From Azonexus sp. (GTDB lineage Bacteria; Pseudomonadota; Gammaproteobacteria; Burkholderiales; Rhodocyclaceae), in assembly GCA_041909105.1 (NCBI GenBank), contig JAYREE010000005.1, positions 17,885-81,884 on the forward strand: a stretch of DNA of 64,000 nucleotides, written 5' to 3'. Shown here in pieces: positions 44,679 through 64,000 of the stretch. The notes under the pieces are model-generated. The model worked only from the letters and a program-made list of their open reading frames with translations. It searched no databases and was not told the origin of the DNA. The position numbers and the translations under genes were made by a program. The stretch's first letter is position 1. Each line of letters starts with the position of its first letter.

Positions 44679-44682
<4 letters not shown>
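44143..44682 (+). CDS. YfiR/HmsC family (DUF4154) periplasmic protein
   Basis: Signal peptide; [36 protein letters not shown]...[20 protein letters not shown]. Confidence 0.9.
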
Positions 44683-47390
<2,708 letters not shown>

Positions 47391-47406
47391 GGCGGAGGAG
47401 ATAACG

Positions 47407-49551
47407 ATGGAAGATCTCGCCACCGTATTGGTAGTTGATGACGAACCGGTAATGCGTACGATTACCCAATCGATCCTGCAGCAAAACGGTTTTGAGGTTA
47501 TTACCGCCGACTCGGCAGAAGCAGCATTTCAGTTGATCGATGAAGGACTATTCCCGGATATCGTGCTGCTCGATGTCCTGATGCCCGGTCTCAACGGTTT
47601 CCAGACCTGCTACCGGCTACGTCAGCAGCAACGTTTCGAACACCTGCCCATCATCATGCTGACCGCACTGGACGACCAAGCGTCGATTGACGAGGCTTAT
47701 CGTAGCGGTGCCACCGACTTCATCACCAAGCCACTGAATATCCCGCTGCTGCCTCACCGCATCCGGTATCTACTGCGCTCGGCAAACGCCTTCAAAGAGG
47801 TTTTCGCCAGCCGGATGACGCTGCTAAACACCCAGCATATCGCTCATCTTGGAAACTGGACGATGGACCCGGAGGGCAACATCGTCACCGCCTCGGCGCA
47901 GTATCTCGACATCATCGGAGAAAACTCCTCCCCCATCCCCGCGCCTCGCCTGCTATTCCGCGTCCATCGTGAAGATCGCGAACTGCTTATCCAGCATCGC
48001 CGCCTACTTCAGGAGGGACAACCCTATCGCCTCGACTATCGCCTGCGCAATCTAACCGACCCGAATACTTGGCACCACGTCCATGAACGCGGTTTCCCGA
48101 ATATCGACCGGGATGGCCGCTATCAGGGTGCGACCGGCTTCACTCAGGACATCACCGAACGAGCCCAGCAGGAAGAGAGAATCCGTGATCTCGCTTGGCA
48201 TGATCGAGTCACCGGGTTGAACAACCGTGGCCGCTTGAGCGAACTAATCGAACGTGAAATCGTCTCTGGCCGCCAGCAGATTTCTCTAGCCGTTCTCTAC
48301 GTCCATATCGCAAGCCTGCGTGAAATCTCGACAGTATTCGGCCAAGAGGTTGCCGATAGTGCCATCCGCGTCCTCTCAGAGCGACTCAAGGAACTACTGC
48401 ACACGCCTGAAAAAATGTGCAACTGTTTCGACAAGGCATGCTTCCTTGCCGCAAAACTGGGGCGTTACGACGAGCACGCTTTCGCCTTGGCAGTGACAGG
48501 CGTAACAAGTGAAGAGCCAATACGCTGCTTTGCCAACACCATCCTGAAGCACTTGTCCGAACCGATGATTCTGCAAGGTCAGGAAACGGTGTTCAAAGTA
48601 TTCCTCGGTATAGCGCTCTATCCGCAAGATGCCCCCGATACCCCTGAGTTGATACGGCGCGCCATGCTGTGTGCAATGCATGCAGCTGCTGGCGATGGCA
48701 GTGACCCCATCAGCTTCTTCGACCCCGAACATGATCGTGAAGCTGCCGAGCGCGTCGCACTAGAGCGCGGCTTGCGCATCGCTCTCGACCAAAGCAGCCA
48801 GCTTGTTCCCTATTTCCAGCCCAAGGTTTGCGCTCACACTGGACAGATTGTGGGAGCCGAGGTGCTGCTGCGTTGGCTGCATCCAGAGCGGGGCATGATC
48901 TCCCCGGCCAAATTTATTCCGATCGCCGAGCAAAGCGGCCTGATCCATCCAATCAGCGAATGGTTGGTTGCCCGTATCTGTGAAACCATTGCCGACTGGC
49001 TAGCGTGGAAACAAGAAATCGGCATGATCAGCATCAATCTTTCTGCGGCAAGCTTTTATCAGCGTACATTGATCCAGTTCATCGACGAGGTGCTTCAAAG
49101 GACTGGTATCCCCGGGAAACAATTGGTCATCGAACTGACCGAGGGAGTACTGTTGCAAAACTCCGACACAGCCAGCCATGTGATCAATGCGTTACGTGAG
49201 CGAGGCATTCGAATTTCGCTGGATGATTTCGGTACCGGCTTTTCCTCGCTCGGCTACCTTAACCGTTTCAACATTGACGAAATCAAGATCGATCGTTCCT
49301 TCGTCATTGACATCGAACGCGACTCTCGCGAACTCGCCTTGGTTCAGGGTATCATCACGCTAGGTCATGCCTTGGGTTTGAAGGTCGTTGCCGAAGGTGT
49401 CGAAACTGCTCGCCAAGCGCAACTGCTACGCGAAATGGGATGCGACATCTTTCAGGGATTCCTTTTCGCAAAGCCCATGCCAGGTGACGAATTCATCCGC
49501 CTTCCGGCTCAGTTATCAGTACCCTCTGAACATCCTGAAAAATTTTCGTAG
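47407..49551 (+). CDS. REC-PAS-degenerate GGDEF-EAL protein (probable c-di-GMP phosphodiesterase)
   Basis: VVDDE...LLDVLMPG...TKP; HDRVTGLNNR; GGDEF replaced by RYDEHAF; EVLLRW, INLSA, ELTE, DDFGTGFSSL, KIDRSF, AEGVE, QGFLF. Confidence 0.92.
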   Translation: MEDLATVLVVDDEPVMRTITQSILQQNGFEVITADSAEAAFQLIDEGLFPDIVLLDVLMPGLNGFQTCYRLRQQQRFEHLPIIMLTALDDQASIDEAYRSGATDFITKPLNIPLLPHRIRYLLRSANAFKEVFASRMTLLNTQHIAHLGNWTMDPEGNIVTASAQYLDIIGENSSPIPAPRLLFRVHREDRELLIQHRRLLQEGQPYRLDYRLRNLTDPNTWHHVHERGFPNIDRDGRYQGATGFTQDITERAQQEERIRDLAWHDRVTGLNNRGRLSELIEREIVSGRQQISLAVLYVHIASLREISTVFGQEVADSAIRVLSERLKELLHTPEKMCNCFDKACFLAAKLGRYDEHAFALAVTGVTSEEPIRCFANTILKHLSEPMILQGQETVFKVFLGIALYPQDAPDTPELIRRAMLCAMHAAAGDGSDPISFFDPEHDREAAERVALERGLRIALDQSSQLVPYFQPKVCAHTGQIVGAEVLLRWLHPERGMISPAKFIPIAEQSGLIHPISEWLVARICETIADWLAWKQEIGMISINLSAASFYQRTLIQFIDEVLQRTGIPGKQLVIELTEGVLLQNSDTASHVINALRERGIRISLDDFGTGFSSLGYLNRFNIDEIKIDRSFVIDIERDSRELALVQGIITLGHALGLKVVAEGVETARQAQLLREMGCDIFQGFLFAKPMPGDEFIRLPAQLSVPSEHPEKFS

Positions 49552-52509: not shown

Positions 52510-52600
52510 TGGCGGAGAGGGGGGGATTCGAACCCCCGATAGGCTATTAACCTATACACGCTTTCCAGGCGTGCGACTTAAACCACTCATCCACCTCTCC
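52510..52600 (-). tRNA. tRNA-Ser (anticodon GGA)
   Basis: Reverse complement GGAGAGGTGGATGAGTGGTTTAAGTCGCACGC-CTGGAAA-GCGTG...GGTTCGAATCCCCCCCTCTCCGCCA; 91 nt, long variable arm. Confidence 0.97.
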
Positions 52601-52635
52601 GGGAGCCGCGCATTATAGCAGGCTTGTGCCCCGAG

Positions 52636-52902
52636 TCAAACGAATCTTCGTAGAAAAGCGAGCGAAAGCCACAGCATGAGCAGAATGCCGAAGGTCAGGC
52701 CATTGATAAATCCTTGGCTGCACCCCTTGGGCAGGATTCTGGTGACTAGCCTAATCGGGCCGGCTGTAAGCAACTTGAACAAACGATAGATGGGATTGGT
52801 CTCACGCCCACTGCCGGCCAACACGAACAGGATGCCTTGACCGATCAGGCATAAACCGAGCATCTCGATTACCGCGCGTAAAGCGCTGAGCAGGAAAGCC
52901 AT
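52636..52902 (-). CDS. Small hypothetical membrane protein (88 aa)
   Basis: Two hydrophobic segments around GRETNPIYRLF; last gene of the symporter operon. Confidence 0.65.
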   Translation of the reverse strand: MAFLLSALRAVIEMLGLCLIGQGILFVLAGSGRETNPIYRLFKLLTAGPIRLVTRILPKGCSQGFINGLTFGILLMLWLSLAFLRRFV

Positions 52903-52911
52903 CCCTTTGGG

Positions 52912-53160
52912 CTACTCGTCGTCAATGCCGAATTCGGCATCCAGTTTTTTCATCCGCCGGTTGTAGTACCAGATGATCAACAGGTAGATGACAAGAACGC
53001 CCTGTGCCGCCATGTAGAAGCCAAGAGGAAAACCAACGAAGATGTACTCGTTCAGTTCGCGGGCAAACCAATTTACCCCGAAGGTAACCAGCAACCAGAA
53101 GGCCAGCAGGCCGACGGTCAGGCGCCGGGTATGCCGCCAGTAGTTGTCAGGGCGTGCCAT
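52912..53160 (-). CDS. DUF4212 small membrane subunit associated with sodium:solute symporters
   Basis: YWRHTRRL, WFLVTFG, GFPLGFYMAAQG, YNRRMKKLDAEFG. Confidence 0.9.
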   Translation of the reverse strand: MARPDNYWRHTRRLTVGLLAFWLLVTFGVNWFARELNEYIFVGFPLGFYMAAQGVLVIYLLIIWYYNRRMKKLDAEFGIDDE

Positions 53161-55192
53161 GATCGCTCTCCTCGCGCTGACGCACAATATTAAGAAATTG
53201 CGCGGCTTGTGGCTCCGGTTTGGTCAGCAGGCTGACCACGACGATGGTGACGAAACCGGCCACCACCCCGAACACCCCGGCTGCCGTTGATTGGACATGG
53301 AACCAGGGCTCCATGTGCAGGCCACTGACACCGAGCCAGGGAATACTGTCGAACTCGACCCGCAGGAGGTAATACAAGGTGGTCAACAGACCGACCAGCA
53401 TGCCGGCCAATGCGCCGCTGCGTGTCGCCCGTTCCCAGAATATGCCAAGCACCAACGCCGGAAAAAATGCAGAACCAGCGATCGAAAAAGCCCAAGCCAC
53501 CATCGACAGAATGGTTCCCGGTTTTTGTGCGGCGACCGTCGCCGCCATGATGGCGACGACCAACAGCATAGACTTCGAAATGACAAGTCGGAACTGTGTT
53601 GAAGCTTCCGGCCGAAAGATGCGGTAATAAACGTCATGCGACAGCGCGCTGGTGATGGTCAGCAATAAGCCATCGGCGGTCGACAAGGCCGCCGCCAAAC
53701 CGCCAGCTGCAACCAACCCCGAAACCACGTAGGGCATGCCGGCGATTTCCGGCGTCGCCAGCACGATCACGTCAGGATTGAGAGATAGTTCAGCTAATTG
53801 CAGAATACCGTCGGCGTTGATGTCCTCGATACTGACTAGCCCGACCTTAGCCCAGGCCGCTACCCAGCCCGGTAATTTAGCAATCGGGATTTCAGCCAAG
53901 TGAGAAAGAACCTCGAACTTGGCGAATACGGCATAGGCCGGTGCCGTGATGTAGAGAAGCAAAATAAACAACAACGACCAGAATACAGACTCGCGCGCTT
54001 CGCGCACCGTCGGCGTCGTGTAGTAACGAATCAATACATGCGGCAATGCGGCGGTTCCAATGGTCAGGCAGAATACCAGTGCCAGGAAATTGATACGCTG
54101 CACCGATTCCGCCTGACTATCTTCACCGGGGAAGGCATCGGCATGGTGGATCGGCTCTCGGCTGCGCTCGACGGCAGCGAACATCGCCGACTCCCATCGC
54201 GCCTTAGCCTGCTCTGGGTCGTGTGGTAACTCGCGGCGCTGCCGCTCCAAAGCGACAATATCGCGCATCTGCGCATCACCAGCCTTCAGTTGATTGATCT
54301 GGGTCTCCAGATGCTCGCGCTCATGCGTCAACGACTGTGGCAACTGCATGATTTTCTGCGCGTACTGGTTGGCCCGCTCGGTATACAACTGCCTCACATC
54401 GATTTCTGCGCGATTGTTGAATACCCGGTTTTCAAGGGCCGTCACTTGCTGCAGGACGTCACCATAAACGAGTTGCGGCACCGGGTTACCGGTGACGTTA
54501 TAAGACAGAATGGCAACGGGTGTAATGTAGGCGACAATCAAAATCAGATACTGTGCAACCTGCGTCCAGGTCACCGCCCGCATACCGCCGAGGAATGAGC
54601 AGACGAGGATTCCTGCCAGACCGACAAACACACCGATTTCGAACTGCAGACTAACGAAGCGGCTAGTAATGACACCGACGCCATATATCTGTGCCACAAC
54701 GTAGACGAAGGAAGCCAGGATGGCCGCTCCGACCGCAACGATGCGGATCGGCGTACCTCCGTAGCGAGCACCGAGAAAATCAGGAATGGTGTATTGGCCA
54801 AACCGTCTCAGATACGGGGCTAGAAGCAAGGCTACCAACACAAAACCGCCGGTCCAGCCGATCACATAGGCAAGCCCCTGAAAACCCGAGAGGTACAAGG
54901 TTCCCGCCAGCCCCATGAACGAGGCGGCACTCATCCAATCGGCACCGGTCGCCATGCCGTTGAAGAAGGCCGGTACGCGCCGCCCGGCGACGTAATATTC
55001 CGACACGTCGGAAGTTCGACTGACGATGCCGATCACTGCATACATCGAAATGGTGAAAAACAGGAAAGCATAGCCAATCCAGCGCGGCGGCATGCCGTGT
55101 TTTTCTAGGATGGCCAAGCTGGCGATGAACAGGAAGAAACAACCCGTGTAATACAGGTAGTAGCGTTGCAGCCTGGTCAAGCGCTGAAGCAT
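53147..55192 (-). CDS. Sodium:solute symporter, ActP-like (VC_2705 subfamily; probable acetate/monocarboxylate permease)
   Basis: YYVAGRRVPAFFNGMATGADWMSAASF, GWTGG, LRRFGQYTIPDF, GGMRAVTWTQVAQY, GTAALPH..RYYT, AALSTADGLLL. Confidence 0.92.
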   Translation of the reverse strand: MLQRLTRLQRYYLYYTGCFFLFIASLAILEKHGMPPRWIGYAFLFFTISMYAVIGIVSRTSDVSEYYVAGRRVPAFFNGMATGADWMSAASFMGLAGTLYLSGFQGLAYVIGWTGGFVLVALLLAPYLRRFGQYTIPDFLGARYGGTPIRIVAVGAAILASFVYVVAQIYGVGVITSRFVSLQFEIGVFVGLAGILVCSFLGGMRAVTWTQVAQYLILIVAYITPVAILSYNVTGNPVPQLVYGDVLQQVTALENRVFNNRAEIDVRQLYTERANQYAQKIMQLPQSLTHEREHLETQINQLKAGDAQMRDIVALERQRRELPHDPEQAKARWESAMFAAVERSREPIHHADAFPGEDSQAESVQRINFLALVFCLTIGTAALPHVLIRYYTTPTVREARESVFWSLLFILLLYITAPAYAVFAKFEVLSHLAEIPIAKLPGWVAAWAKVGLVSIEDINADGILQLAELSLNPDVIVLATPEIAGMPYVVSGLVAAGGLAAALSTADGLLLTITSALSHDVYYRIFRPEASTQFRLVISKSMLLVVAIMAATVAAQKPGTILSMVAWAFSIAGSAFFPALVLGIFWERATRSGALAGMLVGLLTTLYYLLRVEFDSIPWLGVSGLHMEPWFHVQSTAAGVFGVVAGFVTIVVVSLLTKPEPQAAQFLNIVRQREESDHGTP

Positions 55193-55200
55193 GTGGGCGA

Positions 55201-55866
55201 TCAGTGGGTACGACGCAGGAAACGGCTGGCCCGCGACTCTTCGACCAAGCGTTCGGCCGTGTCGATCTGCTTGCTAACCACGCGCACCAATAGCATTTGG
55301 AAAATGCGGGCGAGCAGCAGGTTGTTGTCCATCGCATCGCGCCTGCCCTGCCCGGCATTCAACCCGAACAGTTCAATCCAGTGATCGAGCGGCATCACGG
55401 TATGGCACTTCTCGTCGAACATGGCCGGCAACAGCCAGGCCAGATCGACCCACTGTGCCTCGAACTCAATGCCGAAGCGCTCACGATAAATCTGCTTCAG
55501 ATAGGCGCCGACGTAGGGCACGTGGTAAGTCACCAGGGGCGCCTTGGCGGCGTATTGCAAAAATGCCATCAAACGCCTGTCCACCGCAGCAGCATCTTCT
55601 TCCTTGGCCTCCAAATCGGCGTAAAAGGTATCACCGGGCACGATCATCGAGTGCCGCACGCTGCTCGCCGCCAAGGCCTTCAGCTGGTCACCAGCTCCGC
55701 CCGGCCCGCCGGTGGCGACATCGACCACGACGTAACGCACGTGATAGTGCAAATCGTCGAGCCCAGGCGCGGACACGATCTGCCATTGCTCCAGAGCTTG
55801 CTGCACCTCTTGCGGCAATTCGCTGGCAGCCCCGCCGCCGAACAGGATTTTCTTCAGGTTGAGCAT
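55201..55866 (-). CDS. DEDDh 3'-5' exonuclease-like protein with degenerate active site
   Basis: YVVVDVATGG (DxE to DVA), YHVPYV (cf. HNAxFD), RRDAMDN (cf. RHxALxD); fold context matches the epsilon-like proteins found next to DUF294 genes. Confidence 0.7.
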   Translation of the reverse strand: MLNLKKILFGGGAASELPQEVQQALEQWQIVSAPGLDDLHYHVRYVVVDVATGGPGGAGDQLKALAASSVRHSMIVPGDTFYADLEAKEEDAAAVDRRLMAFLQYAAKAPLVTYHVPYVGAYLKQIYRERFGIEFEAQWVDLAWLLPAMFDEKCHTVMPLDHWIELFGLNAGQGRRDAMDNNLLLARIFQMLLVRVVSKQIDTAERLVEESRASRFLRRTH

Positions 55867-55867
55867 G

Positions 55868-57841
55868 TCAGTTCACCTGATAGTCCAGTTTCAGACGGGT
55901 CTGTATCTTGCGCGCCTGACGGAAAGACTCCTTCAGGATGCGCCGATCGAGTTCGTTGAGCTTATCCGGATCGATCAGGTTGTCGCCCTGGACGCCCGGC
56001 TCGCCCTCCAGGTATTGGTGCTGCAGACGCAGCAGTTGAATGAAATTGAGCGCTTCGAGCACGGCATTGATCTCATCCGCACGGATCGACAAACGCTGCG
56101 ATGCCAGGCGCAGGCGCTGGATCGAGTTGGTGTTGTGCACGCCCGAAGCCAGCGCGTAGATCCGTGCAACATCGACAAAGATGCGCGAACCGTATTTCTT
56201 CAGGTCGATCTTGCCCGGATGATCGGGTTCGAGATCGGTCAGGAAATCGCGAATCTTGCCGAGCGGCGGTTCGACGTCGAGGGCGTTGTGGGCCATGGAT
56301 CGGAGAAAAGCGGGATTTGACGTTGTCAGCTTCAACAAATGGCGACGCATTGATTCCGCTAATTCTGTCTTGCCGTATAGAGGACGAAAATCAAAAAAGA
56401 TGGTTGCATTAAGCAATGCATCAGGCTGTGGCACCCGAACCCAGTTGGCAAAGCGCTCTTTCCATTCGTCGACGGTTAGACACCACTGCGGATTACTCGC
56501 CATGATATTGCCCTTGCACAATGGGAAACCGCAGCGGTCGAGATCACGGTTGGTGTCAAGCGCAAAGGCCAGGAAACGCTGGCGCAACGATTCTTGCGCG
56601 GCCGGATCGGGGCAAGCGAAGACGATGCCGTTATCCTGATCAGTGCTGAAGGTCTGCTCGTCGCGCCCTTCGGAGCCGAACGCCAGCCAGGCCCATTCGA
56701 TGCCGTGGAAATTGTGGTTATCGAGGTTGAGCTGGATAACCCGTCGAGTCAGCGCATCGTTCAAGGCTGAAATGAATTGGGTCAATTGCTCCGCACCAAT
56801 GCCCTGGGCCAGCATGTTGAAAGCCAGTTGGCGCACATCGCCGGCTGCCTGCTGCAGTGCTTCGACATTGGGCGCCCCTTCGATGGATTGGCGAATCTGG
56901 CGCAGGCCGACGCGCTGCAGCGAGAACAGATCGCGCTCGGAAATGACACCTGTCAGCTTGCCTTCGGCATCCGTCACCAAGACATGGCGGATACCGTGCG
57001 TGGCCATGGCCAGCATGGCGTCGTAGGCCGTAGCGTGCTCTTCGAGCATGAAGGGATTGGGCGACATGGCTTGGCTGATCGGCACGTCGTGCGAAAGGTC
57101 GGCGAGCACGACGCGATCGAGCAGGTCGGAACGGGTGAATACGCCGACCGGCTTCCGGTCCTCGCCGGCAATGACCAGCGAGCCGATACCCGCCTTGGAC
57201 ATGGTTTCCAGCGCCGTGCGCAAACGGGTTTCCGGTGCCACGGCAATCGGATTGCGCGCCCCGATGCCGACCAGCGGCGAATTGAGCGTCTGCTGCTCGC
57301 TGGCGCGCTGGGCGAATTGCAGTTGCAACTGGCGGCGCGACTGGTCGAGCAGGCTGGCGATGTACTGGGTGCAGAACAGGTTGAACTCAACGCTCGTCGC
57401 CATCAACTGCATGAAGTCTTCGGCCGGCAGCTGATAGCAGAAAGTGTCTTCGACTGCCGTATAGTCGTTGGTCGACGGGCGCCCTGCCGTCACCGCACCG
57501 ATTGGAAAGGCCTCGCCGGCCCCCAGGCTGAGGATTGAGTATTCGGTGACCGCCACCTCACCGGCTTGGCGCGCCTGCACCTTGCCGGATTCGATCAGGT
57601 AGAAGTAACGCACGTTGCCGGAGTCGGAGCCAACAATCCCGCTGCCCGCCGAATAGAAGGCGATTTGAGCGCGCTCGGCAAAGAATTGCAGCGCCTCCGG
57701 CTTCATCTTGTTGAACGGCGCGTGATTCTTCAGAAAAGCGAGCGTATTGCTGGCCAGGCGACGCAGCCCCTCGGTGCGGAGTGCCAACTCGACTTGCCCG
57801 AGATCGGGGCTTTTTTGTTCTGCTAGCTGCTGCGTACTCAC
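55868..57841 (-). CDS. cNMP-binding / CBS-pair / DUF294 nucleotidyltransferase-like protein
   Basis: cNMP domain (HAPF, GEAFP, AVEDTFCY), two CBS repeats, WLAFGSEGRDEQTFSTDQDNGI, GFPLCKGNIMASNP, FFDFRPLYG, IDLKKYG. Confidence 0.92.
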   Translation of the reverse strand: MSTQQLAEQKSPDLGQVELALRTEGLRRLASNTLAFLKNHAPFNKMKPEALQFFAERAQIAFYSAGSGIVGSDSGNVRYFYLIESGKVQARQAGEVAVTEYSILSLGAGEAFPIGAVTAGRPSTNDYTAVEDTFCYQLPAEDFMQLMATSVEFNLFCTQYIASLLDQSRRQLQLQFAQRASEQQTLNSPLVGIGARNPIAVAPETRLRTALETMSKAGIGSLVIAGEDRKPVGVFTRSDLLDRVVLADLSHDVPISQAMSPNPFMLEEHATAYDAMLAMATHGIRHVLVTDAEGKLTGVISERDLFSLQRVGLRQIRQSIEGAPNVEALQQAAGDVRQLAFNMLAQGIGAEQLTQFISALNDALTRRVIQLNLDNHNFHGIEWAWLAFGSEGRDEQTFSTDQDNGIVFACPDPAAQESLRQRFLAFALDTNRDLDRCGFPLCKGNIMASNPQWCLTVDEWKERFANWVRVPQPDALLNATIFFDFRPLYGKTELAESMRRHLLKLTTSNPAFLRSMAHNALDVEPPLGKIRDFLTDLEPDHPGKIDLKKYGSRIFVDVARIYALASGVHNTNSIQRLRLASQRLSIRADEINAVLEALNFIQLLRLQHQYLEGEPGVQGDNLIDPDKLNELDRRILKESFRQARKIQTRLKLDYQVN

Positions 57842-57912
57842 GACGACCTCTTCTTGATGTTTGAATATTTTAAATCACCGGAAAGCGGCTCCCTGCACTC
57901 TTCCGACCCAAA

Positions 57913-60069
57913 TCAGTATTTCACCCGGGCGAAATAGGTCTTCTCCGAGGCCTCCAGTGCCTGACGCACCGTAACAATACCCTTCGCCTCAAGTATGGGC
58001 ACGAGTTTCAGAAAAACCTCGCCGGTTGCCAAGGCATCTTCCAATGCGTTGTGTCGCGTTTCGATCGTTACCCCCAGACGCTCAAGAATATCGTCCAGCT
58101 TATGTGATTCCTGATTCGGATGGACAACGGCCGACAGTAGCAGCGTATCGAGCACCGGCTGGGTGAAGCGGATGCCGGTCTGCGCTTCCTTCAATTGCAG
58201 GAAGCGCATATCGAACGCCGCGTTGTGGGCGATCAGCACCGTGTCTTCGCAGAAAGCGTGGAAGGCCGGGAGAACGATGCCGATATTCGGCTGGCCACGC
58301 ACCATGTCGTCGGTTATGCCGTGGATCGGGATACCTTCCGGTTTCAACGGCATCTCCGGATCGACCAGCTGGTCGAAGGTTTCGCGGCGAAGTAGACGGT
58401 TGTTGACGATGCGCGCGGCACCGATCTGGATGATTTCATCACCCTTGGATGGCTCCAGTCCGGTCGTTTCGGTATCGAACACGGTGTAGGTCAGATCAGC
58501 CAGCTTGCGGTCGAGGTCGATCGACTGGTCTTCGAACTTGAACAGATCAAAGTCGTAGTATTCCGGACGCCCGGTAACGTGGCGCTCCTCGACCAGCAAC
58601 TCGGCTTCCGGCGTGGCCACGGGCAGCACGAAGCGAAAATAGGCACGATGCACCGCCTTTTCGCGCTGGTACCAGATTTCGCCACCGTGGCGGTCAATCA
58701 CATCGCGCAAGCTGAGCGGCGTCGAATCGCTGCCGATCTGCATCGATTCCATTTCCCAAGTGTAGAAAGTTTCCGACGACATGGCCGGACCGGCCCAGAT
58801 CAGATCAAGATAAGCCAACTTGCCTTGGCTACTCAGGCGGAAGCGCAACTCGCGCGGCTCATAGTGCTCCTGCAATCGGGAAGCGAGGAAAGCCAGGGCA
58901 AAGACCAACGAGAAACTATCGGCCTTGATCCAAAGGTTCTCATCGACTTCCTCTGTCTTCGTCGGCAGTCTCAGGCGCTCGTCGATACGCCGTTGCGCAG
59001 CAACAATGATGTCAATGCCGAGCATGTCATCAAGTGGCCAACGCGTCTTCAGCGAATCTGAGAAGCGGCTCATCGTCTGGTCGATCGCCTGAGTACGCTT
59101 GGCAACCTCGTCGTCGATAATGCGCAGAAAGCGTTCGCGCATTTCGGCTTCCATATCCGGATAGTCGAGTAGGTTACCCACCGCGGCACGGATATTGCCA
59201 ATGGCCGAACGGCTACCCTGGCTCAAGATGTGCAATGCCTGATCGCGTTTTTCTTCTTCCTCGATGCTGCGCGTGATGTTGTCGATGGTCAGCACGTAGC
59301 CGGTCATCGCGCGCTCGTTTCCCTCCCCTGCACTCAGCACGGGGACCATCTGTACGCGCAACAATTGCCCACCGCGCGTTGTCGTCGTAAAGCTGGCATG
59401 TGGCGCTTTGCCAGCGGCAAGACGCAGACGGATAACATCGCACGAATGCTCGACCTGACTCTTCTCCAGGATGGAGAAGATGGAGCGACCGAGACCGATC
59501 AGGGCACCACCGGCGACCGAGGTCGGTCCCTGTGCCAGCGCCTTGAATTGCAAGCGGGCACGATTGTTGTAAAGGAGGATTCGTCCATCGAGATTGCAGA
59601 CGACGACGGCCAGCGCCAACTCGGACATCAGTGCCGCCAGCCGGTTCTTTTCCTCCTCTACCGAGGCATTGGCATTGGCAATCTGCGCTTCCACGTCCTG
59701 CATCAGGGCATCGCGCTGTTCAGCCAAATCGTTCGCAGCCTCAGCCAGTTGGCGTACTTCCGGCGGGCCGTCCGGAGTAACGCGGAAATTACGGTTGGCA
59801 CCGAGCATCAGGCGCAGCGTTTCGCCCATGCGCAACAGGCCTTCGACGTAATTTTTGAATAGCCGGTGCAAAACCAGCACGCCAATGACGAAACCAAAGA
59901 GGGTCATCATCGTACCCACCGGCAGGCGCGACATCAGAAGCTCGGTCAGCAGCTGACGCTCAGCTTCCTTCATATCCATCCAGACGAGCAGCGAAGTCAC
60001 AACAAAGGGCCCGGTCATCAGCAGACCAAGCACAACAATGGCAAGGAAGAAACGATGTTTAGCCTTCAT
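57913..60069 (-). CDS. Membrane-anchored PAS / pseudo-histidine-kinase / DEDDh exonuclease fusion
   Basis: Two TM helices, coiled coil, PAS (VVVCNLDGRILLYN), HisKA-like segment lacking His (SQGSRSAIGNI), intact VFDTETTG, HNAAFD, RHNALEDA. Confidence 0.88.
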   Translation of the reverse strand: MKAKHRFFLAIVVLGLLMTGPFVVTSLLVWMDMKEAERQLLTELLMSRLPVGTMMTLFGFVIGVLVLHRLFKNYVEGLLRMGETLRLMLGANRNFRVTPDGPPEVRQLAEAANDLAEQRDALMQDVEAQIANANASVEEEKNRLAALMSELALAVVVCNLDGRILLYNNRARLQFKALAQGPTSVAGGALIGLGRSIFSILEKSQVEHSCDVIRLRLAAGKAPHASFTTTTRGGQLLRVQMVPVLSAGEGNERAMTGYVLTIDNITRSIEEEEKRDQALHILSQGSRSAIGNIRAAVGNLLDYPDMEAEMRERFLRIIDDEVAKRTQAIDQTMSRFSDSLKTRWPLDDMLGIDIIVAAQRRIDERLRLPTKTEEVDENLWIKADSFSLVFALAFLASRLQEHYEPRELRFRLSSQGKLAYLDLIWAGPAMSSETFYTWEMESMQIGSDSTPLSLRDVIDRHGGEIWYQREKAVHRAYFRFVLPVATPEAELLVEERHVTGRPEYYDFDLFKFEDQSIDLDRKLADLTYTVFDTETTGLEPSKGDEIIQIGAARIVNNRLLRRETFDQLVDPEMPLKPEGIPIHGITDDMVRGQPNIGIVLPAFHAFCEDTVLIAHNAAFDMRFLQLKEAQTGIRFTQPVLDTLLLSAVVHPNQESHKLDDILERLGVTIETRHNALEDALATGEVFLKLVPILEAKGIVTVRQALEASEKTYFARVKY

Positions 60070-60137
60070 GGCTGACTATCCGCGAATATCTGTTTTGATT
60101 TTTGCCCAAAAATGACCGTGCACCGCAGCAGTGGCCC

Positions 60138-60509
60138 TCAGGCCCCTTCCAGCAGGGTCTTCACGTGCGCCACCAGTTCCTTGGTCGCGAATGGCTTGGT
60201 GACATAGGCGTTGGCGCCAATGGCCAGGCCTTTGGCAACCTCGGTATCGCGCCCCTTGGCCGTCAGCATGACGATTTTGAGCTCGGACTTGTCCGGATCG
60301 GCGCGCAGGGCCTCGCACACTTCGAAACCGGATTTCTTCGGCATCATCACGTCGAGCAGCACGAGGTCCGGCGCAAAGCTGGCCACCTTGGCCAAGGCTT
60401 CCTCGCCGTCGCCGGCGACGGCCACCTCGAAGCCCTCCTTGCGCATCAGGAATTCCAGCGAAATGACGATGTTCGGTTCATCGTCGACGATCAGAATCTT
60501 CTTTCCCAT
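60138..60509 (-). CDS. Single-domain response regulator receiver
   Basis: IVDDEPNI, LLDVMMP, MLTAKG, YVTKPF; no output domain. Confidence 0.95.
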   Translation of the reverse strand: MGKKILIVDDEPNIVISLEFLMRKEGFEVAVAGDGEEALAKVASFAPDLVLLDVMMPKKSGFEVCEALRADPDKSELKIVMLTAKGRDTEVAKGLAIGANAYVTKPFATKELVAHVKTLLEGA

Positions 60510-60526
60510 CGTTTGTCTCCCTCTTG

Positions 60527-63238
60527 TTATTCCTCCGACACCGCGAGCGGTATCGTGAAAATGAATGTCGCGCCTGCTCCGGGCTGACTTTCAACCCAGA
60601 GCTTACCACCGAAGTATTCGACAATTTGTCGGCTGATCGGCAAGCCCAGGCCGGTGCCCTGCGGCTTGTCGGTCAGCGTGTTGCCGCCCTGGCGGAACTT
60701 CTCGAAGACGACGGTGCACTCCTCGGCCGTCAGCCCCGGACCATTGTCGGCAACCTCGACCATAATTCCCTTATCATCGGCCGCAACCCTGACTCCGACC
60801 TTACCGCTAGCGGCCGGCACGAATTTCACCGCGTTCGACAGCAGGTTGATGACCACCTGAGTCAGGCGGTCGCGATCCGCCTGCACCGGTGGCAACGGCT
60901 CGGCGATCTGGCAGACGAGTTCGACCGCCTTGTCGCGATATAGCTGGCCAAGCGATTCCGCGGCCTCCAGCACCACCTCGCCGACATCGACCGAAGTCGT
61001 CGTCCACTCGGCCCGCCCCGATTCCAGCTTGGCCAGATCGAGAATCTGGTTGATCAGGCGAGTCAACCGCTCGGTCTCGCCGACGATGATGCCGAGAAAG
61101 CGCGTGCGGTCGGCCAGGTCGATCTTCGGATCGTCATGCAGCATTTCCGAAAAAGCGCGGATCGAAGTCAGCGGCGTACGCAATTCGTGGGTGACGGTCG
61201 AAATGAAATCGTCCTTCATGCGGTCGAGTTCGCGCAGGCGTTCGTTGGCTGCCCGCAACTCGGCTGAAGCTGCTTCAAGCGCCTCCTGCTTGGCCTCCAG
61301 CTCTCGGCTGTAGGCGCGCACCTGCGTCGCCTCATCGAGAATGCCCAGCACCTCGTCCAGCCCAAGCTCCTCCTCCTTGGCCACCGACGCCACCATGATG
61401 CGGGCACTGGCCGAACCGATGGCCGCGGCCAGTTCGCTCTCGGCAAACTGCACGAAAGCGGCGTCGGCCGGCAAGGCCTTCCAGTCCGGCTTGCCGCGCA
61501 GGCGGGCATAAGTCGCCAATTGCTGCTGCGCCCGCCCGACACCGAGAAAACGTTCGAGCAAACCGACCAAGGCTTCAAGCGAAGCACTGCCGCGCCACAG
61601 CCGCGCATTGGTATCGCGCCCGGCATGCCGCCCGACATCGACAAAGCACTCGGCCTGGCTGGCCTCCACCGCATCCGGCACGGTCAGCAGAGAAACGGCG
61701 ACATAGGCACCAAGATTGGCCAGCATGCTCCACCACAGGCAGTGCGTGATCTCGTCGAGCCCGCCCAGGCCGAACAGCGCCTGCGCTTTGAGCCAAGCCA
61801 GCCCGAACAGGCCGTGCACGACGAAATCGTTGCCGATCCAGCCCGACTTGGCGAATGACGGCAGCAGCAAGGTGTACAGCCACACGGCGAAACCGGCCAG
61901 CAAACCGGCGATTGCCCCCTGTTTCGTCCCCTGCTTCCAGTACATGCCGCCGAACATGGCCGGGGCGAACTGGGCCACCGCCGCGAAGGAAATCAGGCCG
62001 ATGCCGACCAGCGCGTAGGCTTCGCCGGCCAGGCGGAAATAAACGTAGCCCAGCAGCAGGATCAAGGCGATGGCCAGGCGCCGGATCAGGAGCAGCAGCT
62101 TCGACAAATCCCGCCGTTTTTCGCCTTGCAGCATTGTCCACCGCAGCAGCACCGGCATGACCAGGTCGTTGCAGACCATGGTCGACAAGGCAATGGTTTC
62201 GACGATGACCATACCGGTCGCCGCCGACAGCCCACCGATGAAAACAAGGAGGGCCAGGCCACTGGCACCGTTGGCCAACGGCAGGGTCAACACGAAGGTA
62301 TCGGGGTTGATCGCGCTGCCGAAATGCATTGCCCCGCCCAGCGCCACCGGCAACACGAAAATATTGATCAACAGCAGGTAGAGCGGGAACAGCCAGACCG
62401 CACGCCGATAGTGCCCTTCGTCGACGTTCTCGACGACGACGACCTGGAACTGCCGGGGCAGGAAAAGAATGGCCAGACCGGAAAGCAGGATCAGGCTGCT
62501 CCAATTACCCGCCCGCGCCGCATCGACCTGGAGCAAACGGGCCAGTTCCGGGCTTTGTGTCGCCTGGGCGAACACATCGCGCAGGCCGCCGTACATGCCG
62601 TAAGCGACGAACAAGCCGACGGCCAGAAAGGCCAGCAGTTTGACGATGGATTCGAAAGCAATAGCCGCCACCATGCCTTCATGGCGCTCGGTCGCATCGA
62701 GGTGCCGCGTCCCGAACAGGATGGTGAACAGCGCCAGCAGGCAGGCAATGAACAGCGTCGAATCCATCCACCATGGCTTGCCCGCCCCGCCCGCCTCGCC
62801 GAGCAAAACATCGACGCTCGCGGCCACCGCCTTCAATTGCAGCGCGATGTAAGGAACGATACCGACCACGGCGATCACCGTCACCAAGCCGGCCAGCAAC
62901 TGGCTCTTGCCGTATCGCGAAGCGATGAAATCGGCTATCGAGGTGACGCGGTAGGCCTTGCTGATGCGGATCATCTTCAGGACCACGCCGGCGCACAGCA
63001 ACATCAGCGTCGGCCCGAGATAAATGGTGAGGAAAGACAGGCCGCCGGAAGTCGCCCGGCCGACGCTGCCGTAGAAGGTCCACGACGTGCAATAGACGGC
63101 CAGCGACAAGGCATAGACGTTGGCCGAAATGATCGAGCGCCCGGCATCGGCACGCGCATCGCCGAAGCGCGCAATGGCAAAGAGCAGCCCGAGGTAGCCC
63201 AAGGCAAGCAAGGCGACGAGCCAAGTCGGGAAACTCAT
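60527..63238 (-). CDS. SLC5 (sodium:solute symporter)-fused sensor histidine kinase, CrbS/MxtR-like, with no C-terminal receiver
   Basis: YALSLAVYCTSWTFYGSVG, SIADFIASRYG, PYIALQLKA, LPRQFQV, ASARIMV (STAC-like region), THELRTPL, NLLSNAVKF, GTGLGL. Confidence 0.93.
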   Translation of the reverse strand: MSFPTWLVALLALGYLGLLFAIARFGDARADAGRSIISANVYALSLAVYCTSWTFYGSVGRATSGGLSFLTIYLGPTLMLLCAGVVLKMIRISKAYRVTSIADFIASRYGKSQLLAGLVTVIAVVGIVPYIALQLKAVAASVDVLLGEAGGAGKPWWMDSTLFIACLLALFTILFGTRHLDATERHEGMVAAIAFESIVKLLAFLAVGLFVAYGMYGGLRDVFAQATQSPELARLLQVDAARAGNWSSLILLSGLAILFLPRQFQVVVVENVDEGHYRRAVWLFPLYLLLINIFVLPVALGGAMHFGSAINPDTFVLTLPLANGASGLALLVFIGGLSAATGMVIVETIALSTMVCNDLVMPVLLRWTMLQGEKRRDLSKLLLLIRRLAIALILLLGYVYFRLAGEAYALVGIGLISFAAVAQFAPAMFGGMYWKQGTKQGAIAGLLAGFAVWLYTLLLPSFAKSGWIGNDFVVHGLFGLAWLKAQALFGLGGLDEITHCLWWSMLANLGAYVAVSLLTVPDAVEASQAECFVDVGRHAGRDTNARLWRGSASLEALVGLLERFLGVGRAQQQLATYARLRGKPDWKALPADAAFVQFAESELAAAIGSASARIMVASVAKEEELGLDEVLGILDEATQVRAYSRELEAKQEALEAASAELRAANERLRELDRMKDDFISTVTHELRTPLTSIRAFSEMLHDDPKIDLADRTRFLGIIVGETERLTRLINQILDLAKLESGRAEWTTTSVDVGEVVLEAAESLGQLYRDKAVELVCQIAEPLPPVQADRDRLTQVVINLLSNAVKFVPAASGKVGVRVAADDKGIMVEVADNGPGLTAEECTVVFEKFRQGGNTLTDKPQGTGLGLPISRQIVEYFGGKLWVESQPGAGATFIFTIPLAVSEE

Positions 63239-63432
63239 GACCTACCCCACCGCTCGGCTACCCAGGCGGCCAAGCCAATCAAACCCGCCCATACGACGAA
63301 GAGATAGAAGATGCTACCCGGAAGCTCCCACAGCCAGCCGACCGACAAGCCAAGCAAGGGAAAGGTCAGCAACAGACCGCCCAATGCAGCGAGCGCCGTC
63401 AGTCGCTGACGCATGCGGATCAGCGCTTTCAT
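63235..63432 (-). CDS. Small two-TM membrane protein coupled to the SLC5 kinase (CrbX-like position)
   Basis: LTFPLL...GSIFYLFVVWAGLIGLAAW; its stop overlaps the kinase start (ATGA). Confidence 0.75.
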   Translation of the reverse strand: MKALIRMRQRLTALAALGGLLLTFPLLGLSVGWLWELPGSIFYLFVVWAGLIGLAAWVAERWGRS

Positions 63433-63539
63433 CGACCGCTCCGGCAAAAAAGAAACGGCCGACACGTTTCCCGTGCCGGCCGTTTGGGCGTGCAGTCATT
63501 TTTTGTTACTGCAACGGTCACCTTCTTGTGGGCGACCAT
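63429..63539 (-). CDS. Putative 36-aa leader/upstream ORF (MVAHKKVTVAVTKNDCTPKRPARETCRPFLFCRSGR)
   Basis: AGGAGG 5 nt before the ATG; TGA overlaps the next ATG (ATGA); runs through a terminator hairpin. Below the track cutoff. Confidence 0.45.
   Translation of the reverse strand: MVAHKKVTVAVTKNDCTPKRPARETCRPFLFCRSGR
63446..63485 (-). terminator. Intrinsic terminator upstream of the crbX/crbS-like genes
   Basis: Minus strand AAACGGCCGGCACG-ggaaa-CGTGTCGGCCGTTT (14 bp with one G-U) followed by CTTTTTT. Confidence 0.85.
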
Positions 63540-63611
63540 GGTCTCCTCCTTGCCCCTTTTGTTCGTGACGGTCATCAAGGCAAGCGTGACAACCGTTCGG
63601 AATTCAAGCTG

Positions 63612-63662
63612 TCGCCCGCTAGCGGGCGATCACCGGGCTTCGTCATCAGACAAAACCCGGTG
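63612..63662. repeat. Tandem hairpins downstream of acs
   Basis: Perfect 18-bp palindrome TCGCCCGCTAGCGGGCGA (63612-63629) plus CACCGGG...CCCGGTG stem (63631-63662). Confidence 0.6.
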
Positions 63663-63670
63663 TAACCACC

Positions 63671-64000
63671 TTAGCCCTTGAGTTGCTCCAGGATCGCCGG
63701 ATTTTCCAGCGTGGAGGTGTCTTGGGTGAGCTCTTCGCCCTTGGCCAGGCCACGCAGCAGACGACGCATGATCTTGCCGGAACGGGTCTTCGGCAGGTTG
63801 TCGCCGAAGCGGATGTCCTTCGGCTTGGCGATCGGGCCGATTTCCTTGCCCACCCAGTCAGCCAGTTCCTTGACCAGCTTCTTGGCAGCTTCCGGATCGG
63901 TCGGACGAGCGCCCTTCAACACGACGAAGGCGACGATGGCTTCACCGGTCAGGTCATCCGGACGGCCGACAACGGCGGCCTCGGCAACCAGCGGGTTGGC
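63671..64000 (-). CDS. acs: Acetyl-CoA synthetase, C-terminal part (continues beyond the window)
   Basis: [57 protein letters not shown]; contains the acetylatable Lys of PKTRSGK. Confidence 0.96.

Follow-up and report, generated by a model that had tools for sequence, protein, structure and literature searches.

A signalling cluster behind acs

The subject of this study is a group of genes at 52.6–64.0 kb of a 64,000-nucleotide stretch of Azonexus sp. DNA (GenBank assembly GCA_041909105.1, contig JAYREE010000005.1, positions 17,885 to 81,884), to which we refer as the window. The genes are co-oriented, tightly packed and follow acs, the gene for acetyl-CoA synthetase; they lie on the minus strand, as do all features whose window coordinates are given below unless marked (+). 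In the order of transcription they encode a small membrane protein, a sensor histidine kinase with an SLC5-type transporter domain, a single-domain response regulator (REC), a membrane protein in which a degenerate histidine kinase is fused to a DEDDh exonuclease, a DUF294 nucleotidyltransferase (NTase), a catalytically dead DEDDh-fold protein, and the large and small subunits of a sodium/solute symporter. A preliminary description made from the letters alone had listed these nine genes, acs included, and each of them is present on this one strand. To that list we added two parts, a conserved open reading frame (ORF) for an 88-amino-acid (aa) membrane protein at the far end and an upstream ORF (uORF) in the leader. 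As that description also stated, no DNA-binding regulator is encoded within 52.6–64 kb. The combination of parts hints at a control of carbon uptake that works through modification of proteins.

The window edge cuts acs, of which the 3′ end (63671..64000) remains; it was identified by direct reading of the C-terminal Acs motifs and ends in a TAA stop codon at 63673..63671. Relatives carry acs at the equivalent position at a full length of 652–657 aa.

A transporter-type sensor kinase and a bare receiver

The first gene after acs encodes a CbrX-like, two-helix membrane protein of 65 aa (63235..63432), recognized by ORF reading and synteny. The ATG at 63432 is most likely its true start, its stop codon overlaps the start codon of the kinase gene (ATGA), and ORFs of 63–66 aa occupy the equivalent place in five related loci (L161, L162, L164, L167 and L168; L numbers denote loci compared with the window). 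In Pseudomonas putida, the start of cbrA, also an SLC5 kinase gene, is likewise overlapped by a small ORF for a two-helix membrane protein, CbrX (PMC6591292). The Azonexus arrangement differs from it in that an additional 36-codon uORF spans a terminator upstream and is coupled to the small ORF, and that a covarying hairpin precedes both.

The kinase itself (903 aa, 60527..63238) carries an SLC5 domain at residues 1–464 that matches a protein named histidine kinase in the Protein Data Bank (PDB; 10ed_A, E = 1.6e-78); the match to Pfam SSF is weak (E = 0.13) and runs over the full length of the model. No STAC linker was found by Pfam or PDB sequence matching of residues 480–665. The catalytic core is recognized by HisKA (3e-19) and HATPase_c (3.8e-29), and its motifs are intact (H684, the N-box at 799, DNGPG at 831 as the G1 box and GTGLGL at 861 as the G2 box). 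The SLC5 domain and a complete core of this kind are features of the SLC5/STAC sensor histidine kinases (CbrA, CrbS and RpuS). HATPase_c ends at residue 899 and the protein stops four residues later, so the kinase lacks a receiver domain, as had been described.

That receiver is encoded by the next gene (123 aa, 60138..60509; Pfam Response_reg, 1.4e-30). Its phospho-acceptor pocket is complete by direct reading (D9, D10, D53, T83 and K105), its best matches are OmpR/PhoB-like, and it has no output domain, in line with its earlier designation as a stand-alone receiver. Other receiver domains in the 64-kb window occur only in a separate signalling pair (44679..49551, +), which consists of a CHASE8-HAMP hybrid kinase with REC and Hpt domains and, behind it, a REC-PAS-GGDEF-EAL protein; in the ORF list these two overlap (47227 versus 47390).

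These parts resemble the CrbS/CrbR systems (MxtR/ErdR) of Vibrio and Pseudomonas, in which an SLC5-domain kinase is also linked to acs and actP-type symporter genes and whose functional neighbourhood or regulon includes a pair made up of a DUF294 NTase and a DEDDh exonuclease (PMC5715377, PMC9927547). CrbS, however, is a hybrid kinase with a C-terminal receiver, whereas the receiver here is a separate protein; no LuxR-type CrbR is found nearby, either in the window or in most related loci; and the membrane-bound pseudokinase–exonuclease fusion is extra. What is already known is thus the SLC5-kinase acetate circuit, with the DUF294/exonuclease pair as an accessory target of CrbR/ErdR. We found nothing in the literature on the kinase–REC–pseudokinase/exonuclease unit, and as far as that search reached, the bare receiver with its pseudokinase–exonuclease output branch has not been described.

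The same likeness raises the alternative that the output is transcriptional. The main partner of the SLC5 kinase would then be a DNA-binding regulator of the CrbR/ErdR type whose gene lies elsewhere, the receiver would be the detached C-terminal receiver of CrbS, serving as a phosphate sink or modulator, and the NTase and exonuclease would be accessory members of the regulon with a separate job. CrbS/MxtR does act through CrbR/ErdR in Vibrio as well as Pseudomonas, and the DUF294/exonuclease operon is a direct target there (PMC5715377, PMC9927547).

A pseudokinase fused to an intact exonuclease

The gene behind the receiver encodes a 718-aa protein (57913..60069) composed of two transmembrane helices and a HAMP domain (residues 1–130), a PAS domain (about 140–268), a degenerate DHp and CA region (270–488) and a DEDDh exonuclease domain (526–700). 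In the window copy, Pfam detects RNase_T only (residues 530–686, 1.7e-35). At E ≤ 10 it finds nothing in the N-terminal 526 aa of the fusion, in the 221-aa dead DEDDh-fold protein, in the 88-aa ORF or in the small membrane ORF. The PAS, HAMP and HisKA labels were taken from members of the fusion family rather than from the window copy: among 67 diverse members, Pfam found PAS in 42, HAMP in 7, HisKA in 5 and HATPase_c in 1.

Residues 270–488 align with the DHp and CA core of the neighbouring kinase (hhalign with the family profile, probability 97.2%, E = 3.5e-11), and the DHp of that kinase directly matches the DHp-like region in more than 30 family members (phmmer). The phospho-acceptor His is replaced by Q284 (Glu in the family consensus) and the ATP-binding boxes are lost, with Ser for Asn in the N-box, WAGPA for DxGxG, and the G2 glycines gone. 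Homology and losses together bear out the pseudo-kinase that had been proposed here. The simplest explanation for a kinase-homologous domain that lacks both the His and the ATP site and yet is kept beside a REC is that it serves to bind the receiver. There is a parallel in Caulobacter, where the pseudokinase DivL binds the phosphorylated single-domain receiver DivK (PMC5361649): in both cases a DHp/CA core without the phospho-acceptor His is partnered with a single-domain receiver. DivL differs in that it modulates a kinase, CckA, whereas this pseudokinase is covalently fused to an exonuclease and its binding to the receiver is what we infer.

In the exonuclease domain the DEDDh residues of Exo I (D-x-E), Exo II (D) and Exo III (H-x4-D) are intact (D532, E534, D620, H673 and D678), and they are at least 90% conserved among 67 representatives. 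The closest PDB entry is the PolC exonuclease domain (2p1j, 1e-31), with DinG and epsilon among the other matches and a weak match to 9qrf, 'ancestor of diDNase'. The N-terminal 520 aa retrieved 1,460 representatives of 50%-identity clusters; 99 of the 150 listed are 690–780 aa long, and the whole architecture therefore constitutes a widespread family. No REC–exonuclease or DUF294–exonuclease fusion occurs among the best 150 of these 1,460 representatives. Public annotation gives the protein no name beyond 'exonuclease domain-containing protein' and 'DNA polymerase III subunit epsilon'.

From these matches one could also propose control at the level of nucleic acids. The fusion would be a signal-regulated 3′–5′ exo(ribo)nuclease whose task is the trimming or breakdown of particular RNAs or of DNA; RNA targets would be mRNAs for transport or the tricarboxylic acid cycle, a small RNA or the 3′ ends of tRNAs, and the DUF294 protein would tail such 3′ ends, by analogy with CCA-adding enzyme and RNase T. 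The nearness to PolC, DinG and epsilon and the near-invariance of the five catalytic residues in the family favour such a role, and as far as is known all characterised DEDDh enzymes are nucleases. The fusion also occurs without an adjacent NTase in Azoarcus sp. KH32C, so a nuclease could stand alone, and mRNA degradation is what the authors of a P. putida study proposed for the exonuclease PP_0353 (PMC9927547). On the other hand, a membrane anchor and a receiver-docking module would be unusual for an RNase, no component contains an RNA-binding domain (S1, KH or HRDC), and the NTase points elsewhere.

A nucleotidyltransferase with the modelled fold of protein AMPylators

This NTase (657 aa, 55868..57841) consists, by Pfam, of a cyclic nucleotide (cNMP)-binding domain, a CBS pair, the DUF294 nucleotidyltransferase domain and DUF294_C. 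It shares 96–97% identity with its counterparts in Azonexus sp. IMCC34839 and an Azonexus metagenome-assembled genome (MAG), and 75–86% with those in Dechloromonas, Ferribacterium and other Azonexus genomes. The catalytic residues are those of the pol-beta NTase signature, G[GS]-x9-13-D-x-[DE], plus a third carboxylate (G389, S390, D401, D403 and D484); G389-S390, D401-x-D403, D484 and K548 are invariant over 17 homologues of 25–61% identity, which include NTase-only paralogues.

Searching PDB sequences with the single protein or with the 17-sequence profile returned CBS and cNMP-binding domains only, and nothing for the NTase region. We then modelled residues 315–657 with AlphaFold2 (AF2) from a diverse alignment obtained by profile search, which gave a predicted local distance difference test (pLDDT) score of 91.5. 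Foldseek found only four significant matches to this model in the PDB, all with probability 1.00 and TM-scores of 0.62–0.69, at 11–16% sequence identity: two chains of the adenylylation domain of Escherichia coli GlnE (3k7d, 2e-7), Legionella DrrA bound to Rab8a (6yx5, 6e-7, TM-score 0.68) and the N-terminal domain of GlnE (1v4a, 1.6e-6). Kanamycin NTase was marginal (E = 0.08), RNA-tailing enzymes such as CutA were non-significant, and cGAS/CD-NTase, OAS and mCpol entries were absent from the output. DUF294_C is in turn a substrate-binding domain of the GlnE/GlnD type (Pfam). The likeness to GlnD/GlnE proposed from the motif alone extends, for GlnE, to the modelled fold; the motif G389-S390...D401-x-D403 reads as had been written.

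With GlnE and DrrA/SidM as the only significant fold matches in the PDB, the best-supported chemistry for the modelled domain is transfer of a nucleoside monophosphate (NMP) to, or its removal from, a protein. The shared features are an NTase fold with a helical substrate-binding domain and the G-S...D-x-D...D signature. What sets the Azonexus protein apart is its cNMP and CBS sensor domains and the nature of its proposed eraser, which would be a DEDDh hydrolase in place of the second NTase domain of GlnE; for DrrA/SidM the eraser is SidD, a PP2C-like enzyme. In the literature we found neither an assay of NMP transfer by a DUF294 protein nor a functional study of this activity. Since protein AMPylators are what the fold of DUF294 resembles, C-terminal domain included, and the CutA-like RNA tailers do not reach significance, we consider nucleic-acid-level control by the fusion and the NTase unlikely.

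A third possibility for the pair is the turnover of a nucleotide messenger, in which the DUF294 protein makes a small linear or cyclic (oligo)nucleotide and the DEDDh enzyme degrades it, as Orn does with pGpG. The presence of a cNMP-binding domain and a CBS nucleotide sensor, the paired logic of synthesis and degradation, the existence of dinucleotidases in the DEDDh superfamily, and the weak match of the fusion to 9qrf agree with this. It is nevertheless highly improbable in our judgement, given the lack of cGAS/CD-NTase, OAS or mCpol entries in the Foldseek output, the GlnE/GlnD character of DUF294_C, and the lack of any effector with a messenger-binding domain conserved in the module.

A dead exonuclease and the symporter

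One nucleotide after the end of the DUF294 gene begins the gene for a 221-aa protein (55201..55866) that aligns with the DEDDh domain of the fusion (BLASTP, E = 3e-4) and with NCBIfam exonuclease models (PRK07740, 1e-9). At the catalytic positions it reads D-A-V-R-N instead of D-E-D-H-D, so one of the five residues is kept; the preliminary description's degenerate DEDDh protein is thus one that has retained the fold homology. The pattern recurs in an alignment of 79 sequences, made up of the window and 78 other loci, four of them outside the Azonexaceae: D in 73, V or A in 66, V in 71, R in 75 and N in 75. The ratio of nonsynonymous to synonymous substitution rates (dN/dS) is 0.03–0.12, no worse than for neighbouring genes, which indicates a conserved pseudo-enzyme rather than a decaying gene.

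Short exonucleases encoded beside DUF294 genes in other lineages keep D-E-D-H-D. Judged by these residues, the short exonuclease of the Azonexaceae is therefore a derived, inactivated version of the canonical partner and the counterpart of P. putida PP_0353. A second, distinct departure from DEDDh is seen in MAGs of Zoogloeaceae and Rhodocyclaceae (L070–L074), in which the exonuclease that follows DUF294 has N-E-N-H-D, with two Asp-to-Asn changes.

The canonical pair, PP_0354/PP_0353 in P. putida (Pflu5625 in P. fluorescens, PA3233/PA3232 in P. aeruginosa), likewise consists of a cNMP–CBS–DUF294 protein followed by a DEDDh-fold protein, beside or co-regulated with actP; the Azonexus locus differs in that the short partner has lost four of the five catalytic residues and yet stays under strong purifying selection, and that the live DEDDh domain resides on the 718-aa fusion. 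Published genetics bear on this pair. CrbS/CrbR controls the DUF294 gene of P. fluorescens, pflu5625, which is preceded by an ACTU operator; a deletion strain showed no phenotype, and nucleotidylation was put forward as the function by the authors (PMC5715377). ErdR binds the P. putida operon of PP_0354 and PP_0353; neither gene is needed for growth on acetate, and on pyruvate the exonuclease (PP_0353) and actP-I mutants grow more slowly while the NTase (PP_0354) mutant is normal (PMC9927547). P. aeruginosa PA3232–PA3235 are induced on propionate (PMC9765439). According to a 2026 preprint, few genes depend on MxtR/ErdR as much as this pair does, and protein modification is again proposed there (bioRxiv 10.64898/2026.09.07.749794).

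Downstream lies the VC_2705-family sodium/solute symporter. The large subunit (681 aa, 53147..55192; Pfam SSF) scores 764 bits against TIGR03648, for which the cut-off is 321 (8.5e-230), and the DUF4212 small subunit (52912..53187; Pfam 1.6e-28) scores 94 bits against TIGR03647, with a cut-off of 26 (4.7e-27). The large subunit contains a charged, helix-rich cytoplasmic insert of about 110 aa (residues ~250–367, window ~54090..54445) that is absent from the TIGR03648 model; tblastn matches of distant relatives are split and flank it. The insert is a possible regulatory or modification site. The DUF4212 gene is downstream of the symporter gene and overlaps it, whereas in Zoogloea (L168) and in most metagenome loci it is upstream.

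The segment at 52636..52902, with which the range of the preliminary description begins, is not DUF4212 but a separate ORF for a hydrophobic 88-aa membrane protein (orf88) and the last gene of the operon. It has no Pfam or NCBIfam match; it is syntenic in Azonexaceae, with dN/dS values of 0.06–0.24 in eight of nine pairs, the ninth having too little divergence. The segment directly after the operon (52510..52639) holds a tRNA-Ser(GGA) gene together with a near-consensus sigma-70 promoter (11 of 12 positions, with a TG extension) at 52639..52612. A sub-threshold Rfam match to tmRNA at 52510..52600 was dropped, as ARAGORN identified a plain tRNA-Ser(GGA).

Conservation of the module and the question of a transcriptional output

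The order acs, small ORF, kinase, REC, fusion, (short DUF294), cNMP–DUF294, dead DEDDh, symporter, DUF4212 and orf88 is found in about 60 Azonexaceae loci. The core unit of small ORF, SLC5 kinase, REC and fusion, with or without DUF294, recurs in Zoogloea, Azoarcus, Competibacteraceae and Burkholderiales, usually beside acs, symporter or pyruvate genes, and this synteny across distant lineages rules out chance co-location. In metagenome loci whose fusion proteins share 28–70% identity, most of those that include upstream sequence have a single-domain REC immediately upstream of the fusion. Most also have the SLC5 kinase and DUF294 genes as neighbours, although their order varies and they may lie on either side and on either strand. 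A Zoogloea locus (L168) has acs, small ORF, kinase, REC, fusion, CBS–DUF294, DUF4212 and SSF; a Burkholderiales operon (L164) has acs, the unit, two DUF294 genes, DUF485–SSF and a second REC–fusion pair; and the cultured Azoarcus sp. KH32C (L167, AP012304.1 1917178–1939358) has acs, small ORF, kinase, REC, fusion and SSF. Named sources are mostly Rhodocyclales (Azonexus, Dechloromonas, Zoogloea and Accumulibacter) and Competibacteraceae. Among these genera are several that store acetate in phosphorus-removal plants, a setting in which much depends on how acetate uptake is controlled.

Two loci speak to the target of the module. The self-contained five-gene unit adjoins ppsA and a ppsA regulator in L161; in L162, from a MAG of the Competibacteraceae, it follows genes for 2-oxoacid dehydrogenase, and in both cases acs and symporter genes are missing from its flanks. 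The earlier proposal that Acs or the permease is the modified protein is a guess from adjacency, and the module also occurs without these neighbours.

Between the fusion gene and the cNMP–DUF294 gene, most Azonexaceae have an additional DUF294 paralogue (L003..L080; for example, L011 8961–9971), which is about 340 aa long, consists of the NTase only and has kept its catalytic residues, so that their tandem DUF294 proteins recall the two NTase domains of GlnE. The window and L001, L002, L045 and L047 are without it. Decay in this lineage is complementary: the short exonuclease is dead and the short DUF294 lost, which leaves one live NTase and one live exonuclease. These losses are consistent with both exonuclease types and both NTase types acting on one kind of substrate.

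The comparison of loci also bears on a transcriptional output. On its side are L087, in which kinase and receiver form one protein, as they do in CrbS, and two loci with a REC-plus-output regulator nearby (L097 and L117). Set against this, a single-domain receiver adjoins the fusion gene in about 30 loci; of about 30 loci with a detected receiver ORF, only those two have such a regulator nearby, which leaves about 28 without one, as is the 64-kb window. REC and fusion also form the tightest unit of the module, with genes that overlap by 4 nucleotides in L162, L164 and L168 and a pair that is duplicated in L164, and the His-less, ATP-site-less kinase domain of the fusion is most simply a module for binding that receiver.

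A conserved leader upstream of the sensor genes

The region between acs and the small membrane gene (63429..63596) looks like a translation-coupled attenuator. Its first element is a hairpin, P1 (63568..63596), identified by RNAalifold in 57 distinct sequences; eight stem pairs covary (GC/AU/UA/CG) and the loop, CUUGCC, is invariant and complementary to GGCAAG (63554..63549), which abuts a Shine–Dalgarno sequence. Rfam contains no family that matches the leader. The 36-codon uORF follows (63429..63539), with a strong Shine–Dalgarno sequence, GGAGGAG, and a TGA that shares bases with the ATG of the small membrane gene. This overlap, in the form of a terminal [A/G]TGA, is kept in 50 of 57 loci despite frame-shifting indels, with uORF lengths of 33–37 codons.

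Inside the uORF, about 10 nucleotides before the first gene of the sensor operon, a terminator scan found an intrinsic-terminator-like hairpin with a 14-bp stem and a T tract (63443..63485); compensatory changes preserve its stem. The terminator is a strong one and is placed at 63485..63453. A promoter would not fit between this terminator and the sensor operon, which is therefore probably read through from upstream, with translation of the uORF opposing termination. The one RNA-seq run found that might bear on the leader contained 5% of the words and was set aside. Expression of the sensor genes would thus be gated after acs by a terminator-spanning uORF whose translation is coupled to that of the CbrX-like gene and, next in line, to that of the kinase gene.

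Upstream of acs, in relatives (L001/L002 at ~1930–2000, outside the window), we found a conserved palindrome, TGCTGCGCCGCAGCG, followed by direct repeats, TCGTAAG/TTGTAAG, at 11-bp spacing. These are candidate operators for a DNA-binding regulator not encoded in the cluster, and to that extent they favour the transcriptional alternative. The ACTU motif (GAC-N4-GTC) was not seen upstream of acs in these relatives, which is a further difference from CrbS/CrbR and an argument against that alternative. Taking both sides together, we regard signalling mainly through a distant CrbR/ErdR-like regulator as somewhat unlikely; it and an enzymatic output are not mutually exclusive.

A possible enzymatic output

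We tentatively propose that the module has an enzymatic, non-DNA-binding output, in which DUF294 is a writer and the fused DEDDh domain an eraser that is switched by the receiver; this full model is possible, though we would not call it probable. The SLC5 domain would sense acetate, another monocarboxylate or the flux of either, and the kinase would phosphorylate the adjacent receiver. The phosphorylated receiver would dock on the DHp-like helices of the pseudokinase, as phosphorylated DivK does on DivL, and switch the exonuclease domain on or off. DUF294, with its CBS pair as a gauge of energy charge and its cNMP domain as a sensor for a cyclic nucleotide, would place an NMP on a protein of acetate/pyruvate (monocarboxylate) uptake or activation. 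The fused DEDDh domain would hydrolyse the protein-O-P-5′-nucleoside phosphodiester to the hydroxyl and 5′-NMP, a bond whose geometry would be chemically equal to that in the removal of a 3′-terminal nucleotide. The dead paralogue might act as a non-catalytic binder or scaffold.

Much of this develops ideas of the preliminary description, which had called the output enzymatic rather than transcriptional and had proposed a reversible nucleotidylation circuit of DUF294 writer and DEDDh eraser. The first gains from a receiver without an output domain and from the rarity of output regulators near related loci, and it stands subject to the transcriptional route discussed above. The putative writer gains from the GlnE/DrrA-like modelled fold, invariant catalytic residues and the pyruvate genetics of P. 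putida. As to the eraser, the intact DEDDh domain on the fusion is a candidate, and the degenerate 221-aa protein cannot serve as one. The P. putida phenotypes on pyruvate fit an inhibitory mark set by the writer and relieved by the exonuclease.

Several points weigh against the proposal. As far as we are aware, the substrates of all characterised DEDDh enzymes are nucleic acids or short oligonucleotides, and no member is known to remove a nucleotide from a protein; the nearest relatives of the domain in the fusion are DNA exonucleases (PolC, epsilon and DinG). An exonuclease eraser is not required in principle, since GlnE removes AMP by means of a second NTase-fold domain and many relatives have tandem DUF294 proteins. 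We found no biochemical activity in the literature for any DUF294 protein or partner exonuclease, and the operon of Azoarcus sp. KH32C lacks an adjacent DUF294 gene. Docking of the REC on the pseudokinase is inferred from adjacency and homology alone. An AF2 model of the full 718-aa fusion reached a pLDDT of only 40 from a shallow alignment (13 sequences of 83–94% identity); it was not used for fold search, and the domain calls rest on hhalign and the Pfam matches of family members. Finally, both P. putida mutants grow worse on propionate (bioRxiv 10.64898/2026.09.07.749794), which simple antagonism of writer and eraser does not predict.

In a variant of the proposal, the pseudokinase would be a substrate dock, and the protein nucleotidylated by DUF294 and de-nucleotidylated by the fused DEDDh domain would be the receiver itself, or the SLC5 kinase or symporter contacted in the membrane. 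We consider this variant quite improbable. Were it true, it would be the first case of a DEDDh 'exonuclease' as a protein de-AMPylase or de-UMPylase; no earlier two-component pathway would be one in which reversible nucleotidylation of the pathway's receiver acts as the gate; and energy charge (CBS), a cyclic nucleotide and acetate flux would be integrated without a transcription factor.

In Pseudomonas, the DUF294/exonuclease pair ranks with the genes that respond most strongly to induction by MxtR/ErdR, the regulator for acetate and short-chain fatty acids. The Azonexus locus places this pair in a larger, widely conserved module, gives it a likely upstream signal path from SLC5 kinase to bare receiver to pseudokinase, and narrows the NTase to the fold of the protein AMPylators GlnE and DrrA. 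If the fused DEDDh domain is indeed an eraser, it would represent a new enzyme class in protein de-nucleotidylation and the module a new type of non-transcriptional two-component output.

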